From contig DASZIG010000122.1 in NCBI GenBank assembly GCA_035949375.1, positions 26,491-50,490 of the forward strand: a stretch of 24,000 bases of DNA, in the 5' to 3' direction. Below, piece after piece: positions 11,296 through 15,167 of the stretch. The notes under the pieces were generated by a model that saw only the letters and a program-made list of their open reading frames with translations, ran no database searches and was not told where the DNA came from. Numbering within the stretch: the stretch's first letter is position 1; every line of letters starts with the position of its first letter. The stretch comes from Terriglobia bacterium. GTDB taxonomy: Bacteria > Acidobacteriota > Terriglobia > UBA7540. The translations under genes and the position numbers were made by a program.

Positions 11296-12627
11296 TCAAT
11301 CTTCCGGTAGCCGCTCCAGTTCGCGGACATAATCGACAACCGCTTCGCTCCAGCCGTCAATGTGCGTCCACTGCCCGTAACCCACGCCGTTCTTGTAACT
11401 GGCCACGTTGATCATGATGCCGCGCCCGTGCGGGCTCGCGACATCATCGTGCGCCTGCTCGTCCGTGATCACGATCAGGCGGTCGTAGCTCTCCTCGATC
11501 TGCTTGAGGGCCACCCCCAGATACGTGGCGTTGTGGGGCTGGCTCGCGTCCAGGGCGTCGCGCAGCGCAAATCCGCGGCGGGAAGGCACGCGAACCAGCC
11601 GGTCCGAAAAGCTGTAGACGCTGACGCTTTCCGCAATCTCGCGCAGCAGGATGGCGAGACCGTAGGCCGCGTCGGTGCGCAGCATCTCCGACCGGCGCGA
11701 AAGCGGCTCCGTCATGGAGCCGGAGACGTCCACTACCAGCACCGTCCGCCCCGGCAGCTTGTCCTCTGAGCCAACCGATGCCAGCATGGCGCGCTCCAGG
11801 GCCTCTTCCCACGCGGGAACATGACGCGCCGCCGCAATGAAGCGGAACGGCAGCACCCGCGTAGTCTTCATGCGGGCCAGAGCGTCGATCACCAGGTCTT
11901 CCGCCACGCCGGCATCCTTCAGATTACGCAGGTTGCGCAGCAGCGCCAGGGCGCCGAGCCGGCGATCCCGGAGCAGACGCTCCCAGGCCTCGCGCTTGCC
12001 CTCCCCGCGCGTGGCCGAAAGCGCCACTTCCCAGGTGTCGGGCGTGGCGAGCCGGCCCTCCACGAGCCGCTTCCAGAGCTCGGCCTGCGCCTCGTCGCGA
12101 GGCTTGGCGTGGCAGAGGAAGAGCACGTCGCGCAGACGAACGGGCTGCGCACGGTCGTACTTGGCGAGCTGATACTCGTCAAACTTGCCGAACGCCGCGG
12201 CCAGCCCTTTCTTGACCTGCGCGGAAAGCGGCGCCTTACCGTCCTTCCAGTAGATGGCGACGAATTCCGCCAGCTCGCCGGCGCGCCGGATCACACGATC
12301 GAGCGTCGCCGCCACCAGGGTACGATGCGTCTTGTGGCGCGCCATCTCGCGAACCAGAAGCAGTGGCGCATGGCGCAGCTTCATTTTCTCGCGCGCTTCG
12401 ACGGCCAGCGCGGCCACCCGCGCGGCGTCCACGCGGGGAACCAGCTCCTGGATGCGCCCGCCGATCTCCACGCCGTCCTCGTAGAACTGGCTCTCCCACA
12501 GAAGACACGCGAGCACCGAGCGGCGCAGCGCGAGCTCCGGCGTGATGGCCCGGGCGGCGCCGCCTTCGTGCGTCTGGAGCACAGGCGCGAAGGCGCCGCG
12601 CAGGTTGAGAATGTTGAGTCGAGCCAT
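11296..12627 (-). CDS. rsr: Ro60-related TROVE-domain protein with C-terminal vWA domain (Rsr-like)
   Basis: TROVE-type N-terminal region: LWESQFYEDG, KLRHAPLLLVREMARH, and the LPFRFIAA motif. The C-terminal vWA domain has an intact MIDAS DxSxS (VLVVDVSGSMTE). I prefer the start at 12627 (MARLNILNL...) because AAGGAGG lies 8 nt upstream. The 31-aa extension in the track ORF is rejected. Confidence 0.85.
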   Translation of the reverse strand: MARLNILNLRGAFAPVLQTHEGGAARAITPELALRRSVLACLLWESQFYEDGVEIGGRIQELVPRVDAARVAALAVEAREKMKLRHAPLLLVREMARHKTHRTLVAATLDRVIRRAGELAEFVAIYWKDGKAPLSAQVKKGLAAAFGKFDEYQLAKYDRAQPVRLRDVLFLCHAKPRDEAQAELWKRLVEGRLATPDTWEVALSATRGEGKREAWERLLRDRRLGALALLRNLRNLKDAGVAEDLVIDALARMKTTRVLPFRFIAAARHVPAWEEALERAMLASVGSEDKLPGRTVLVVDVSGSMTEPLSRRSEMLRTDAAYGLAILLREIAESVSVYSFSDRLVRVPSRRGFALRDALDASQPHNATYLGVALKQIEESYDRLIVITDEQAHDDVASPHGRGIMINVASYKNGVGYGQWTHIDGWSEAVVDYVRELERLPED

Positions 12628-12707
12628 GTCGTGCACCTCCTTGTATGGGGTGCGGTGTGTGATGTCGAGCGGGCAGCCACCGCAAGACAAGCGCAGCGAG
12701 CGCCAGA

Positions 12708-12740
12708 GGCGATTAGTCAAGATGCTGACTGACCGTCGCC
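12708..12740 (-). ncRNA. Hairpin resembling the Ro-binding helix of Y RNAs, in the rsr 5' leader
   Basis: The minus strand reads GGCGA-C-GGUCAG-[UCAGCAUC]-CUUGACU-AA-UCGCC. GGCGA/UCGCC gives 5 bp. GGUCAG pairs with the last six nt (UUGACU) of CUUGACU, giving 6 bp that include G-U pairs. The GGUC/GACU core and the 3' strand CUUGACUAAUC resemble the metazoan Y RNA helix (5' UGGUCCGA paired with 3' CUUGACUAGUC). The conserved bulged C is absent. Confidence 0.35.
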
Positions 12741-12796
12741 TGCTGCGTGCTGCCGCTTGCCTTCTGCCAACCGTCCGTTCAAGGCGGGGAACTATC

Positions 12797-12900
12797 GATA
12801 AGGTTCTATGACTGAGCTACGCGAACCTCGCTGGCCCGCGGCAGGAATCGAACCTGCGGCCTCCGGCTTGCGCCGGCGCTCTACCGAAGTAACCCTTATC
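12797..12900 (-). ncRNA. Circularly permuted tRNA-like RNA (YrlA-like tRNA mimic candidate)
   Basis: The minus strand reads GAUAAGGGUUACU-UCGGUA-GAGC-G-CCGGC-GCAA-GCCGG-AGGCC-GCAGG-UUCGAUU-CCUGC-CGCGGGC-CAGCGAG-GUUCGCG-UA-GCUC-AGU-CAUAGAACCUUAUC. This gives a 5-bp T stem with a canonical T loop, a 5-nt variable loop, and a 5-bp anticodon stem capped by a GNRA tetraloop. The 7-bp acceptor stem (5 Watson-Crick plus 2 G-U pairs) is closed by a 7-nt loop. The D stem GCUC/GAGC forms between the two ends, and the flanks pair (GAUAAGG-GUU with AAC-CUUAUC). The tertiary-interaction nucleotides U8, A14, G15, G18G19, A21, G26, G46, C48, T54-Psi55-C56 and A58 are all in place. Confidence 0.6.
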
Positions 12901-12976
12901 TTCACCACCGCCCGAAGCGGATGCTACAAACCCGTGGTTCGAGTCTGTAGCCTATCTCGGGCGACGGCGGATGGCC

Positions 12977-13306
12977 TTACGGAATGACCTCCGCGTCTTC
13001 GCCCTCGATCTTTTTAAACTCCTTCGCCGTCACGAAGCCGACGCTGCGTCCGGCCCGCTTGGTGACCAGGATCCACGCCGTCTTTTCCATTCCATCTCCA
13101 TCCAGGTCCGATCGCCTTCGGTCCGCGTAGGCGGTGCATTCCCGAATCCTGAACGGGATGAGCTGCGGCTGCTCCCAACGCCTGAAAGTACAGTGGATCA
13201 GCTCCTCGCTCTCCGCGTATCCTTTCTGGATTTGAGCGTACGAGCAGGTGCGGCAAAGCCAATCGCCCGTGACCGGAGTTCCATTTTGAACTCCACGAGT
13301 ACCCAT
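12977..13306 (-). CDS. Hypothetical 109-aa protein with four Cys, no family recognised
   Basis: The ATG at 13306 is preceded by AAGGGAGG 10 nt upstream. The composition looks coding. Cys residues at 18, 21, 39 and 57 form CxxC-x17-C-x17-C. The sequence is MGTRGVQNGTPVTGDWLCRTCSYAQIQKGYAESEELIHCTFRRWEQPQLIPFRIRECTAYADRR...AWILVTKRAGRSVGFVTAKEFKKIEGEDAEVIP. The overlapping ORFs on the same strand (13014-13352, 13198-13413) and on the plus strand (12971-13327) have no SD and look like shadow ORFs. Confidence 0.65.
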   Translation of the reverse strand: MGTRGVQNGTPVTGDWLCRTCSYAQIQKGYAESEELIHCTFRRWEQPQLIPFRIRECTAYADRRRSDLDGDGMEKTAWILVTKRAGRSVGFVTAKEFKKIEGEDAEVIP

Positions 13307-13600
13307 AATTCGTTCGCCTCCCTTTGACAGACAAAGCAGTGCAAACAGACAATGTGCAACTCGAAGCTACGGTTTAATCCATCGACGGTGCAAATTCTTT
13401 CGCCGGGGAACACGCGACCAAGCTGAAGCTACGAGCCCTCACCGCCCGGAACCTTGTGTTTCGGAGCTACGCTCCCGTCCCTGAAGGGTCTTGGAGCTCG
13501 CCGGGGCGGCCAGCCCCGCGCTTCGGAAGTGGAGGCGAAGTATCCATGGTCTTTCGCCACCGGCGACAACTATGAAAAGCGTCCCTGGCCAGCGAACAAG

Positions 13601-13690
13601 CGAGCGCGGCCTGAGGACTCGAACCTCCACGCCAGCCCACACCCGGGCCAGCGTGTTCACCGGAGAAGAATCCGCACTCTACGCCACTGA
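13601..13690 (-). ncRNA. Second tRNA-like element (D-arm, short anticodon-like hairpin, long variable hairpin, T-arm); either a Y-RNA-type mimic or a decayed class-II tRNA relic
   Basis: The minus strand reads CGGUC-AGUGGCGUA-GAGUG (D-arm-like, with G18G19 and A21), then CGGA-UUCUUC-UCCG (4-bp stem, 6-nt loop). Next comes CUGGCCC-GGGUGU-GGGCUGG (7-bp variable-arm-like hairpin) and GAGG-UUCGAGU-CCUC (T arm with canonical T loop). There is no adjacent acceptor partner and no CCA. Confidence 0.4.
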
Positions 13691-14216
13691 CCGAACTGTT
13701 ATAACAACAAACCTATGACCTTCCCTTGAGGCGCGACTGCGAACAGCTTCGCGCACAGCGACATCAGGCCGCCCGCCATTCTTCACTGGTCCTGCCTTAT
13801 TCCGCCGGGGGAACAATGGACAGCGGCAGACTTAACAAGGTCGAAGTATCCACCATCGACGCCACCCAGCGATTAAGTTGATGAGGGAACGCGAGTTAAG
13901 AGCGCCGCGGGACTAACGGGCGCTCAAGAGGATGACCAGGAACGCCCGATAGCAACCGGTGCCAGTCTCCGGCAACCGCTGCTCACGCATCGAATTGTTC
14001 GTCGTATCATGCATGACGGACGTTCTCCCAAAATCTCAACTACTATAGCAGAGACTAAATGGGTGGGTCAAGAAAAAAAGACAGTAGTTCAGCGGGAACT
14101 CGCGCGGGGCCCGAGATCCTATTCGTGGTCTCCCGGACCAGGTTCTGCTACTGCGGAACTAGGATGTACGGCGCACTCCCTCGCCAGCGGCTAGTGTCGT
14201 TGTGCCTGCAGCATCT

Positions 14217-15167
14217 TCACGCGAGGCTTGCCTTCAGTTCGTTTATGGCCTCGGCGACCACCTTCTGGACTCGATCACCTTCCCGGTCGTAGAGCGAGAG
14301 GATCTCGCTCTCAAATTGCGGTCCCAGCGCGTTGATTGAGTCTGGGCGGTTCCATACCAACTCGAAGTTTTTCTGATAATAATTGTAGAGCGATGCGCCA
14401 GGGAAATTGTTGCGGTGCGGGACGAATACCCACGCCGGCGTTCTATTTCCAGCCCGATTCTCATCGTAGAACGAGATGTTCAGCCGTTCGTCAGTGAAGA
14501 CGCAAGAGACGGTGGGAAGTGTGCAATAGACGCGCACCTCGAGGCGTTTCCGGGCGCCCTCGTGCAGGTTCTTATGCAGCTTCCGTAATCTTACGACCGA
14601 CTGCACGATCTCGGCAAACAAATCGGTATGCGGGTGGCGGTACACCTCGATATTGTTTTTCAGCGCGGCCGCGACGGAGAACGGATTCAGGAATAACATC
14701 TTGACCGTCATCTTCGGGTCAGCTTCGAGACGCTCCTTCAGGAGGTCAACAAAAGGATTTGAGGACACGTCCGGCAGCGAGGTTCCAATGGCAACGAAGA
14801 AAGACTTTGCCTCAGCAAGCATCTCCTCAAAATCACGATAAGACCTTTCCGGCTTGAACTGTTGGAGGCCCGACGAGGTGATCTGCACAGCGGCGTTGTT
14901 GATCGCGCGTACGATGTCGGCGAGGCGTCGCTCCATGAATGACTCAACTTCCCGCCGGGCGGTCAGTTCAAACACGGCGGAGAGCACGCCCGCGGTCATC
15001 AAGGTGAATCCGAACGAGCGGACGTCATCGCTCCATGCAGGGGTGTACCACGCTGCGCGCAGCCAGTAGTTTGAAAAAACTGCGGCCAGCCCGATGGCGA
15101 GAAGAGAAATGACCAGCTTCCACAGGCTTGACTGGCGCGATGGTTGGATCTCGGCCAAAACAGGCAC
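14217..15167 (-). CDS. Two-TM membrane protein with a C-terminal domain resembling DUF5919 (from memory, unverified)
   Basis: GTG start at 15167 with GGGGAGGAAGCT immediately upstream. Two hydrophobic helices are present (LWKLVISLLAIGLAAVF and FGFTLMTAGVLSAVF). The C-terminal pattern FFVAIGTSLPDV...VKMLFLNPFS...LEVRVYCTLPTVSCVFTDERLNISFYDENRAG...FELVW matches my recollection of the domain found C-terminal to XRE HTH in actinobacterial proteins. GC is clearly lower than in neighbouring genes. Confidence 0.8.
   Translation of the reverse strand: MPVLAEIQPSRQSSLWKLVISLLAIGLAAVFSNYWLRAAWYTPAWSDDVRSFGFTLMTAGVLSAVFELTARREVESFMERRLADIVRAINNAAVQITSSGLQQFKPERSYRDFEEMLAEAKSFFVAIGTSLPDVSSNPFVDLLKERLEADPKMTVKMLFLNPFSVAAALKNNIEVYRHPHTDLFAEIVQSVVRLRKLHKNLHEGARKRLEVRVYCTLPTVSCVFTDERLNISFYDENRAGNRTPAWVFVPHRNNFPGASLYNYYQKNFELVWNRPDSINALGPQFESEILSLYDREGDRVQKVVAEAINELKASLA

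Follow-up and report, generated by a model that had tools for sequence, protein, structure and literature searches.

A likely Ro60/Y-RNA ribonucleoprotein operon of the phiRo60-like clade on a Terriglobia chromosome

What is encoded by the long, mostly non-coding sequence that precedes a TROVE gene on a Terriglobia chromosome? The gene lies in a 24-kb stretch of DNA from a Terriglobia bacterium (contig DASZIG010000122.1 of assembly GCA_035949375.1, positions 26,491 to 50,490; this whole stretch is called the window below, and positions are counted from its first letter). A first-pass annotation had noted a TROVE plus von Willebrand factor A (vWA) protein at 11296–12627, two elements with tRNA-like T-loops and a hairpin upstream of it on the same strand, and an open reading frame (ORF) of 109 amino acids (aa) in that upstream region, and had read these together as an Rsr/Y-RNA module. 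Ro60 homologues with adjacent Y RNAs, of which one is a tRNA mimic, and sometimes with RtcB, are a known kind of locus (PMC4201824, PMC12135203, bioRxiv 10.1101/312249). Our analysis indicates that the locus is very probably a Ro60/Y-RNA ribonucleoprotein (RNP) operon of the phiRo60-like clade, carried on the Terriglobia chromosome. The Ro60/Y-RNA part of the earlier reading is upheld by homology, a YrlA match, conservation and covariation, but its Rsr part is not: the canonical Rsr equivalog (NCBIfam NF041674) scored 15.8 bits against a cutoff of 900.

The features of the locus are given below from the promoter candidate to the TROVE gene, R1 being a covariance model trained on 47 class-1 RNAs of relatives, with the window copy at 12780–12914 among the training members.

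14042–14071, minus strand: sigma-70-like promoter candidate, TTGACC-18 nt-(TG)TATAGT (consensus scan only)
13802–13871, minus strand: Y-like RNA class 4, a minimal 70-nt hairpin (R1 29.1 bits, E 4e-5)
13585–13693, minus strand: Y-like RNA class 2, about 110 nt, with a T-arm and no D-arm (R1 27.1 bits, E 1e-4)
13399–13566, minus strand: Y-like RNA class 3, about 165 nt (R1 37.8 bits, E 4.5e-7, filters off)
12977–13306, minus strand: small protein of 109 aa with four invariant cysteines, C18, C21, C39 and C57 (GGGAGG Shine-Dalgarno sequence; conservation)
12915–12976, minus strand: spacer with a long hairpin, from the small ORF to the class-1 RNA (minimum free energy (MFE) fold of 12740–12976, z = –3.2)
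12780–12914, minus strand: Y-like RNA class 1, a YrlA-like tRNA mimic of about 133 nt (R1 86.5 bits, as a training member; Rfam YrlA 23.1 bits)
11296–12627, minus strand: Ro60-like protein of 443 aa, TROVE (HEAT-repeat ring) plus vWA, with the metal ion-dependent adhesion site (MIDAS) DVSGS (Pfam, PHROG and PDB matches)

Two sets of relatives were compared with the window: 80 GTDB loci with TROVE proteins 70–86% identical, nearly all of them from metagenome-assembled genomes (MAGs) of Terriglobia/Acidobacteriota, and 80 viral loci from IMG/VR that were scanned for the RNA array, the small ORF and RtcB (L numbers below denote individual loci).

The domains that had been proposed for the 443-aa protein were recovered. 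Pfam TROVE (PF05731) matched with 54.5 bits against a cutoff of 23, the match being limited to residues 192–283, and the MIDAS motif is present as VDVSGSM, with D300, S302 and S304 invariant in 20 homologues. The Pfam vWA_Ro60 model scored 25.3 bits, just under its cutoff of 27.7, and relatives carry PF25045. The reading frame opens with an ATG at 12627, preceded by AGGAGG, and its N-terminus MARLN is common to all homologues compared. PHROG 850 (‘RNA-binding protein’) matched residues 18–438 with 149 bits, and residues 17–438 aligned with the PDB chains 9l5y/9kop at E 2e-27, or 1.2e-40 with a profile. These chains are phiRo60, the doughnut-shaped Ro60 homologue of Thermus phage phiLo (PDB 9L5Y, 9KOP; PMC12135203). 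In the PDB search human Ro60 (E 4.4e-8) and Xenopus Ro60 (E 1.6e-4) also matched, with the similarity located in the vWA-proximal part, and the Deinococcus Rsr chains gave no match at E ≤ 0.01, family profile included. More than 8000 homologues were found in a large protein collection, the nearest in Terriglobia MAGs. By sequence comparison, we thus assign the 443-aa protein to the phage-type (phiRo60-like) Ro60 clade and not to canonical Rsr.

phiRo60 recognises two upstream Y-RNA-like RNAs (Yrl1/Yrl2) by a CGAA bulge, and its ternary complexes with the PNPase of the host have been described (PMC12135203). The basic residues whose mutation lowers RNA binding in that work were mapped onto our sequence alignment. 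Residues K141, K142, R169 and R178 of phiRo60 correspond to K139, K140, R166 and K175 here, and the counterparts of R137, R163, R173 and K193 are not basic; the residue numbers are those of PMC12135203, with an inferred offset of +8 between paper and chain numbering, under which all eight positions are K or R. The peptide PLS[GA]QVKKG, which holds the KK pair aligned with K141/K142, is among the best-conserved peptides of the family.

A search of the window with R1, run with filters off, returned exactly four matches, which all lie on the minus strand and precede the TROVE gene, the fifth-best reaching only 11 bits (E 0.4). The RNA array therefore extends to 13871, past position 13711 at which the earlier annotation had ended it, and the two T-loop elements plus hairpin described there proved to be four RNAs of four classes. 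Common to the four RNAs is a terminal stem-bulge-stem, with G(G)YGAAG on the 5′ strand and GUUCCCC on the 3′ strand, and the alignments show that the weaker R1 matches rest on this shared element. Their distal modules differ, being a YrlA-like permuted tRNA mimic in class 1, a T-arm only in class 2, a 165-nt module in class 3 and a minimal hairpin in class 4. Compensatory base-pair changes were observed in all four classes.

The T-loop pattern GGTTCGANTCC occurs exactly twice in the 24 kb, at 12844–12854 (GGTTCGATTCC) and 13615–13625 (GGTTCGAGTCC), both on the minus strand, compared with an expectation of 0.09 from shuffled sequences. Most of the 80 genome loci have it upstream of the gene and on the gene strand, often in two to three copies, most of which ARAGORN does not call as tRNAs; on the other strand of the upstream region it never occurs. 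Because the window yielded no tRNA with ARAGORN and no Rfam match at the gathering score, we regard these T-loop elements as tRNA-like and not as tRNAs. Rfam was run at the gathering score on the window and on relatives, 31 loci in all, and three of the four classes are unrepresented there, with class 1 sub-threshold.

At E ≤ 0.001, R1 yielded 272 hits in the window and the 80 genome loci, typically three to eight per locus, and every one of them is on the TROVE strand and precedes the gene. The 80 IMG/VR loci gave another 157 hits, again without exception on the TROVE strand; here most hits directly precede the gene and a few follow it. Xanthomonas phage MET23-P3 and Brevundimonas phage Gurke each have five hits that fill the unannotated gap before the TROVE gene. 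The neighbourhood comparison that had been suggested earlier thus finds the elements conserved in 160 related loci, with no change of strand relative to TROVE.

In the window, the elements run in the order promoter candidate, class 4, class 2, class 3, ORF, class 1, TROVE. According to a noisy regex census, which over-calls (190 wrong-strand matches) and was used for order only while counts were taken from the covariance model, L074 has exactly the order 4-2-3-ORF-1-TROVE, and L021, L045, L053 and L062 have a close one; class 4 precedes class 2 in 37 of 38 loci, and class 3 precedes class 1 in 43 of 45.

The class-1 RNA lies 153 nt upstream of the TROVE ATG, on the same strand. In order, it consists of the terminal stem CGGGCGG/CCCCGCC with GGUGAAG, then UUAC, GGUAGAGC, a GCAA-capped stem, the T-arm GCAGGUUCGAUUCCUGC, a closed acceptor-like hairpin (CGCGGGCC-AGCGA-GGUUCGCG in the window), GUAGCUCA and a 3′ strand ending in GUUCCCC. 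These parts can be set beside the YrlA elements given by Chen et al. 2014, namely GNCGAAN0-1G, YUAY, a V hairpin, a T-arm, a closed acceptor-like stem and a D-arm (PMC4201824). The family consensus runs, from 5′ to 3′, CGCCGGUGG(C/U)GAAGAC..GGUUACUUC, a variable hairpin, GCAGGUUCGAAUCCUGC, a hairpin, GUAGCUCAGUGGUAGAGCA and ..GUCGCunGUUCCCCGGCG; the family motifs GG(C/U)GAAG and UUAC appear in the window copy as GGUGAAG (U for C) and UUAC. The class-1 alignment has 97.3% of its cells paired, and 21 of its 27 pairs have changed on both sides, including three of the five pairs of the T-arm and all six of the acceptor-like stem. Its covariation score was 0.381, against 0.162 when shuffled (reached in none of 500 shuffles) and at most 0.11 with slid partners.

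The Rfam scan of the upstream region that the first-pass annotation had proposed placed the YrlA model (RF02553) correctly on the class-1 RNA, at 12778–12876(–) and over the full model length, with 23.1 bits (E 0.054 in a 1.8-kb search); this is below the gathering score of 69 bits, and no tRNA was called. On the class-1 RNAs of relatives the same model scored 28–56.5 bits, with E values down to 4e-10, and the gathering score was reached in none of the 31 loci searched. Because of these scores in relatives, we take the class-1 RNAs to be divergent YrlA homologues that the curated threshold misses.

Most class-1 RNAs contain the D-arm consensus GUAGCUCAGUGGUAGAGC, where the window copy reads GUAGCUCAGUCAUAGAAC, lacks the GG and has one mismatch. 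The window copy and those of 12 other loci form a split-D subtype, in which GGUAGAGC and a short-loop anticodon-like stem stand before the T-arm and GUAGCUCA follows the acceptor hairpin. By inspection, the anticodon-like stem of this subtype covaries. The MFE fold pairs GAGC with GCUC, a pairing that is invariant across loci and so neither supported nor refuted by variation, and as a result the long stem would leave the tRNA-like body via the D-loop and not via the anticodon stem. The adjoining spacer (12915–12976, minus strand) shares 85% identity with L001:1-59, and no counterpart was seen in loci further removed. The loop of its hairpin is the reverse complement of the T-loop-like GGTTCGAGTC.

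The class-2 RNA combines the terminal stem GGUCAG/CUGGCC with GGCGUAG and the T-arm GGAGGUUCGAGUCCUC. Rfam tRNA-Sec matched it at 13604–13677(–) with a sub-threshold, T-arm-driven 21.3 bits, and compensatory changes were found at 9 of 21 pairs in the alignment of 29 sequences. In the class-3 RNA, the ends UCGCCGGUGGCGAAAG ... GUUCCCCGGCGA form the shared terminal stem, with the 5′ motif GGCGAAAG, and enclose a conserved inner module without a T-loop, in which a GCAGGG...CCCUGC hairpin and GGGACGGGGGCGUAGCCCCGAAnCACAAGGUACC are conserved. Across 30 loci, 95.5% of the class-3 alignment is paired with compensatory types at 24 of 39 pairs, and Rfam gave no match to this class. The class-4 RNA has the form GCUGGGUGGCGUCG ... 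UUGUUCCCCCGGCG with a small apical hairpin, and its alignment over 36 loci is 99.1% paired, with compensatory types at 11 of 15 pairs.

The apical hairpin of class 4 has 3–4 bp, and in about 20 of the 36 loci (L014–L078) it carries a 7-nt loop CUGNNAA, the variants being CUGUUAA, CUGCUAA, CUGUCAA, CUGUGAA, CUGUAAA and others. This loop has the anticodon-loop pattern C32-U33-NNN-A37-A38, and its ‘anticodon’ is often GUN. In the window copy the loop, CUUGUUAA, is 8 nt long.

The 109-aa ORF announced by the first-pass annotation is present at 12977–13306(–) behind its GGGAGG, and its proposed role as an embedded Cys-rich partner is in keeping with its retention inside the RNA array, on the same strand, in 47 of the 80 Terriglobia loci. 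The four cysteines are invariant in 78 small-ORF sequences, and the protein presumably binds zinc. It has no match in Pfam, NCBIfam, PHROG or PADLOC, and source records call it ‘hypothetical protein’; a profile built on it collected 1286 members at E ≤ 0.001 among 1.84 billion cluster representatives. An AlphaFold2 model made from a deeper alignment (predicted local distance difference test score 81) found no Foldseek match in PDB or BFVD. The small ORF is absent from all 80 viral TROVE loci, and its distant relatives sit in phage-like gene clusters that have neither a TROVE gene nor a Y-like RNA. A paralogue of the small protein, with an N-terminal hydrophobic helix and LCxxCxFAHMQYG...YCTDYR, occurs downstream of TROVE in L019 (5672–5953), L015 (5611–6027) and L058 (5540–5851) and upstream of it in L073 (3387–3731).

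Relatives of the TROVE protein are also widespread in phages. In IMG/VR, 310 stretches encode relatives at 50–64% identity, and 86 cultured-phage records do so at 52–54% identity over 95–98% of the protein, among them phages of Brevundimonas, Xanthomonas/Xylella, Bacteroides, Rhizobium, Streptomyces, Gordonia, Vibrio and Caulobacter. In the cultured phages the gene is mostly annotated ‘hypothetical protein’. In Brevundimonas phage vB_BpoS-Gurke (L168), the annotated ‘tRNA-Ser’ GURKE_03100 at 2793–2867 overlaps a class-1 hit at 2794–2928 (77.9 bits); this ‘tRNA-Ser’ directly upstream of TROVE is probably a mis-annotated YrlA-like RNA.

The first-pass annotation had further stated that no RtcB lies nearby. 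This is true of the window, where tblastn with the RtcB of L008 as query was empty and the Pfam results for large ORFs held no RtcB or RtcA. However, 17 of the 80 genome loci have an RtcB gene (Pfam, 435 bits) upstream on the same strand, and none of the 80 viral loci has one, so the family is not generally RtcB-free.

When the locus is set beside the systems known so far, it resembles YrlA/Rsr loci in that the RNAs share the strand of the Ro60 homologue and are no more than 4 kb away from it, that a locus usually has more than one Y RNA, and that RtcB adjoins the genes in a subset of relatives. Like YrlA itself, class 1 places a T-arm, a closed acceptor hairpin and, in most copies, a D-arm, and thus a circularly permuted tRNA mimic, on a putative Ro-binding stem. 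It differs from YrlA in its low scores (23 bits here and up to 56.5 in relatives, against the 69 required) and in the split-D form of the window copy, whose tetraloop-capped anticodon-like stem brings it nearer to the D. radiodurans Yrn1 as drawn by Chen et al.; the locus differs further in its three additional stem-sharing classes and its ordered arrays of three to eight RNAs, compared with two in studied species. The phiRo60-Yrl1/Yrl2 system offers the nearest solved protein relative, likewise with upstream stem-bulge-stem RNAs with CGAA, and the RNA-contacting VKK pair is kept; unlike it, the present locus is chromosomal, includes tRNA mimics among its four RNA classes and adds a small Cys protein, and its 443-aa protein is shorter than the ~490–500 aa of phiRo60 and keeps only half of the mutated basic residues. 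With the Salmonella rsr-yrlBA-rtcBA operon it shares a Ro60 homologue and Y RNAs in one transcription unit, a presumed one here, and 17 of the 80 relatives share the same-orientation RtcB. In contrast to that RtcR/sigma-54 operon, the window holds no RtcB, RtcA or sigma-54 activator, the promoter candidate is sigma-70-like, and the RNAs come first and Ro60 last. The D. radiodurans Rsr-Yrn1-PNPase complex (RYPER) is alike in its proposed logic, with the Y RNA as a tether from ring to effector, and unlike in that its Rsr has no sequence match to our protein at E ≤ 0.01, profile included.

We propose that a single transcript, starting near 14035 from the sigma-70-like site, would give rise to four stable RNAs and an mRNA. 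This processing of one precursor is suggested because YrlA and YrlB of M. smegmatis are reported to be processed from one precursor. The stem-bulge-stem with G(G)YGAAG would serve as the Ro60-binding site, since phiRo60 binds the CGAA bulge and Xenopus Ro60 binds a GGUCCGA helix. The distal modules might then be adaptors, each linking the ring with a partner or substrate of its own, such as PNPase or enzymes that recognise tRNA; PNPase in RYPER is the precedent for this role. With such adaptors, a single ring protein could assemble into several alternative RNPs that handle structured or damaged RNA. RtcB, where it is linked to the genes of relatives, would point towards tRNA and RNA repair, and the small Cys protein may be a lineage-specific accessory of the Ro60 RNP. 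Our confidence in any specific partner is much lower than in the RNP operon itself.

A further-reaching version of this proposal is a multi-adaptor Ro60 system, encoded here as well as in the related phage loci, in which a fixed-order array of four RNA classes docks on one ring, the modules mimic RNA targets and act as decoys, sensors or guides for tRNA-directed nucleases and repair enzymes, and the tetra-Cys protein is a dedicated subunit of the chromosomal version. We put this forward tentatively and consider it rather doubtful. If true, it would mean mimicry of a whole tRNA body, a T-arm, an anticodon-like 7-nt loop and a 165-nt fold.

Several observations speak against reading the locus as a Ro60/Y-RNA operon. 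The protein is basic at only four of the eight mutated RNA-contact positions of phiRo60. An exact CGAA occurs in the class-3 copy only, the other window copies having UGAA, CGUA and CGUC. The class-1 copy remains below the YrlA gathering score and its post-acceptor D-arm is imperfect, and the class-2 copy has GUUCGC where 28 of 29 sequences have GUUCCC, which breaks an otherwise invariant G-C pair; it may be a weakened copy. The promoter candidate is a consensus match only, with no evidence of function, and the unit contains no terminator-like site. Finally, stable RNAs, processing sites and protein binding are what we infer.

That the module is phage-derived and serves a phage or prophage, capturing host PNPase or other RNA enzymes to blunt host RNA decay or defence in the manner proposed for phiRo60, with the Terriglobia copy being a remnant or a domesticated island, strikes us as unlikely. 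It would fit the phage-linked best protein matches (PHROG 850 and phiRo60), the many IMG/VR and cultured-phage relatives, the occurrence of such RNA arrays in phages, the distant relatives of the small ORF in phage-like clusters and the ORF6N gene found downstream in 16 loci. Yet the 24-kb window contains no phage hallmark gene, the locus is not in a phage genome, no convincing flanking direct or inverted repeats were found, and the GC content is unremarkable. Moreover, the chromosomal loci add RtcB (17 of 80) and the small ORF (47 of 80), both absent from the 80 viral loci, which would suggest a cellular adaptation of the module.

The same elements might instead be cis signals in a long 5′ leader or polycistronic mRNA, acting in stability, processing or attenuation to control how the small ORF and the TROVE gene are translated, with Ro60 possibly regulating its own mRNA through them. 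Every element is indeed on the strand of the mRNA, one promoter-like site precedes them, the genes follow and no terminator-like site intervenes, and in relatives the start codon is usually only a few tens of nt away from the end of the last element. We nevertheless hold this to be very improbable, as each locus has three to eight elements in four classes, each closed by its own terminal stem, some viral elements are located downstream of the gene, and the studied homologues YrlA/YrlB and Yrl1/Yrl2 are stable or protein-bound RNAs. Hardly credible at all is a chance placement beside TROVE of decayed tRNA genes or tRNA-derived repeats, which the canonical T-loops might bring to mind, together with the odd tRNAs that ARAGORN calls in a few relatives' copies (L003 2274–2348, L044 2441–2509) and the copy annotated as tRNA-Ser in phage Gurke. 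Against it stand the permuted order of the modules, a terminal stem that is foreign to tRNAs, is shared with the T-loop-less classes and is maintained by covariation, and the linkage to TROVE in strand and position in 429 of 429 model hits.

Within the Ro60/Y-RNA operon that we favour, several parts are not described in the literature compared: multi-class arrays of three to eight RNAs on one docking stem in a recurring order, the 165-nt and minimal classes, the split-D subtype, the tetra-Cys protein, and the size and phage spread of the clade. Some class-1 RNAs may already be listed in the supplementary tables of Chen et al. 2014. Bacterial Ro60/Y-RNA particles have been studied in few species, with about two Y RNAs each, and the clade considered here is large and mostly unannotated, with one ring and three to eight Y-like RNAs of several classes. 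Its loci form a natural experiment on the effector modules of Y RNAs, for which culturable phage systems are available, and they bring a new conserved small protein to be placed in the Ro60 pathway. The comparison also flags annotation errors, namely the Gurke tRNA-Ser and ‘intergenic’ phage gaps that are RNA arrays.

The consensus scan for promoters found two sites in 3.3 kb, where 0.4 were expected, and L054 has a similar TTGACA site and a conserved leader segment at the same relative position. This leader segment (13969–13998, minus strand) is 30 nt long, folds as a hairpin and is 90% identical to L054 1559–1588, and was not found in other loci; in both the window and L054 it lies ~60–70 nt past the TTGAC(C/A) site and ~100 nt before the class-4 RNA. 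A fifth RNA element in the leader (13927–14013) was considered and not counted, as it has no R1 match and is shared with L054 only.

The wider setting consists of ordinary chromosomal genes, the large ORFs of the window encoding sensor kinases, P450, DUF885, HAD and similar proteins. An upstream two-transmembrane (2TM) gene had earlier been named as a partner; none of the 80 related loci holds a homologue of it. It was dropped, as were the response regulator, DUF885 and P450 neighbours, since tblastn matched none of these in the 80 loci. Because the flanking genes lack counterparts in relatives, the conserved unit is the RNA array, the small ORF and TROVE, ~2.8 kb in all. The 316-aa product of the 2TM gene, at 14217–15167(–), gives only a borderline DUF5919 match (23.4 bits, cutoff 23.5), and the PADLOC defence models matched neither the TROVE protein nor the small ORF nor the 2TM gene.

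Around the TROVE genes of relatives, the ORF6N-domain gene mentioned above (Pfam, 107 bits) lies downstream on the opposite strand in its 16 of 80 loci, for example at L019 6546–7136(–). Acido-Lenti-1 (RF01687) scored above its gathering score near or inside two arrays, at L021 2276–2322(–) and L033 1202–1247(+), and was rejected as a part of the system because of this sporadic occurrence (2 of the 31 loci searched at the gathering score). A tight array consisting exclusively of class-II tRNA genes (those with a long variable arm), Leu-Tyr-Ser-Ser-Leu, is found just downstream of TROVE on the opposite strand in L003, L008, L013, L016 and L030, and a tRNA-Pro(UGG) follows RtcB in L003, L006, L008, L017, L040 and L052.

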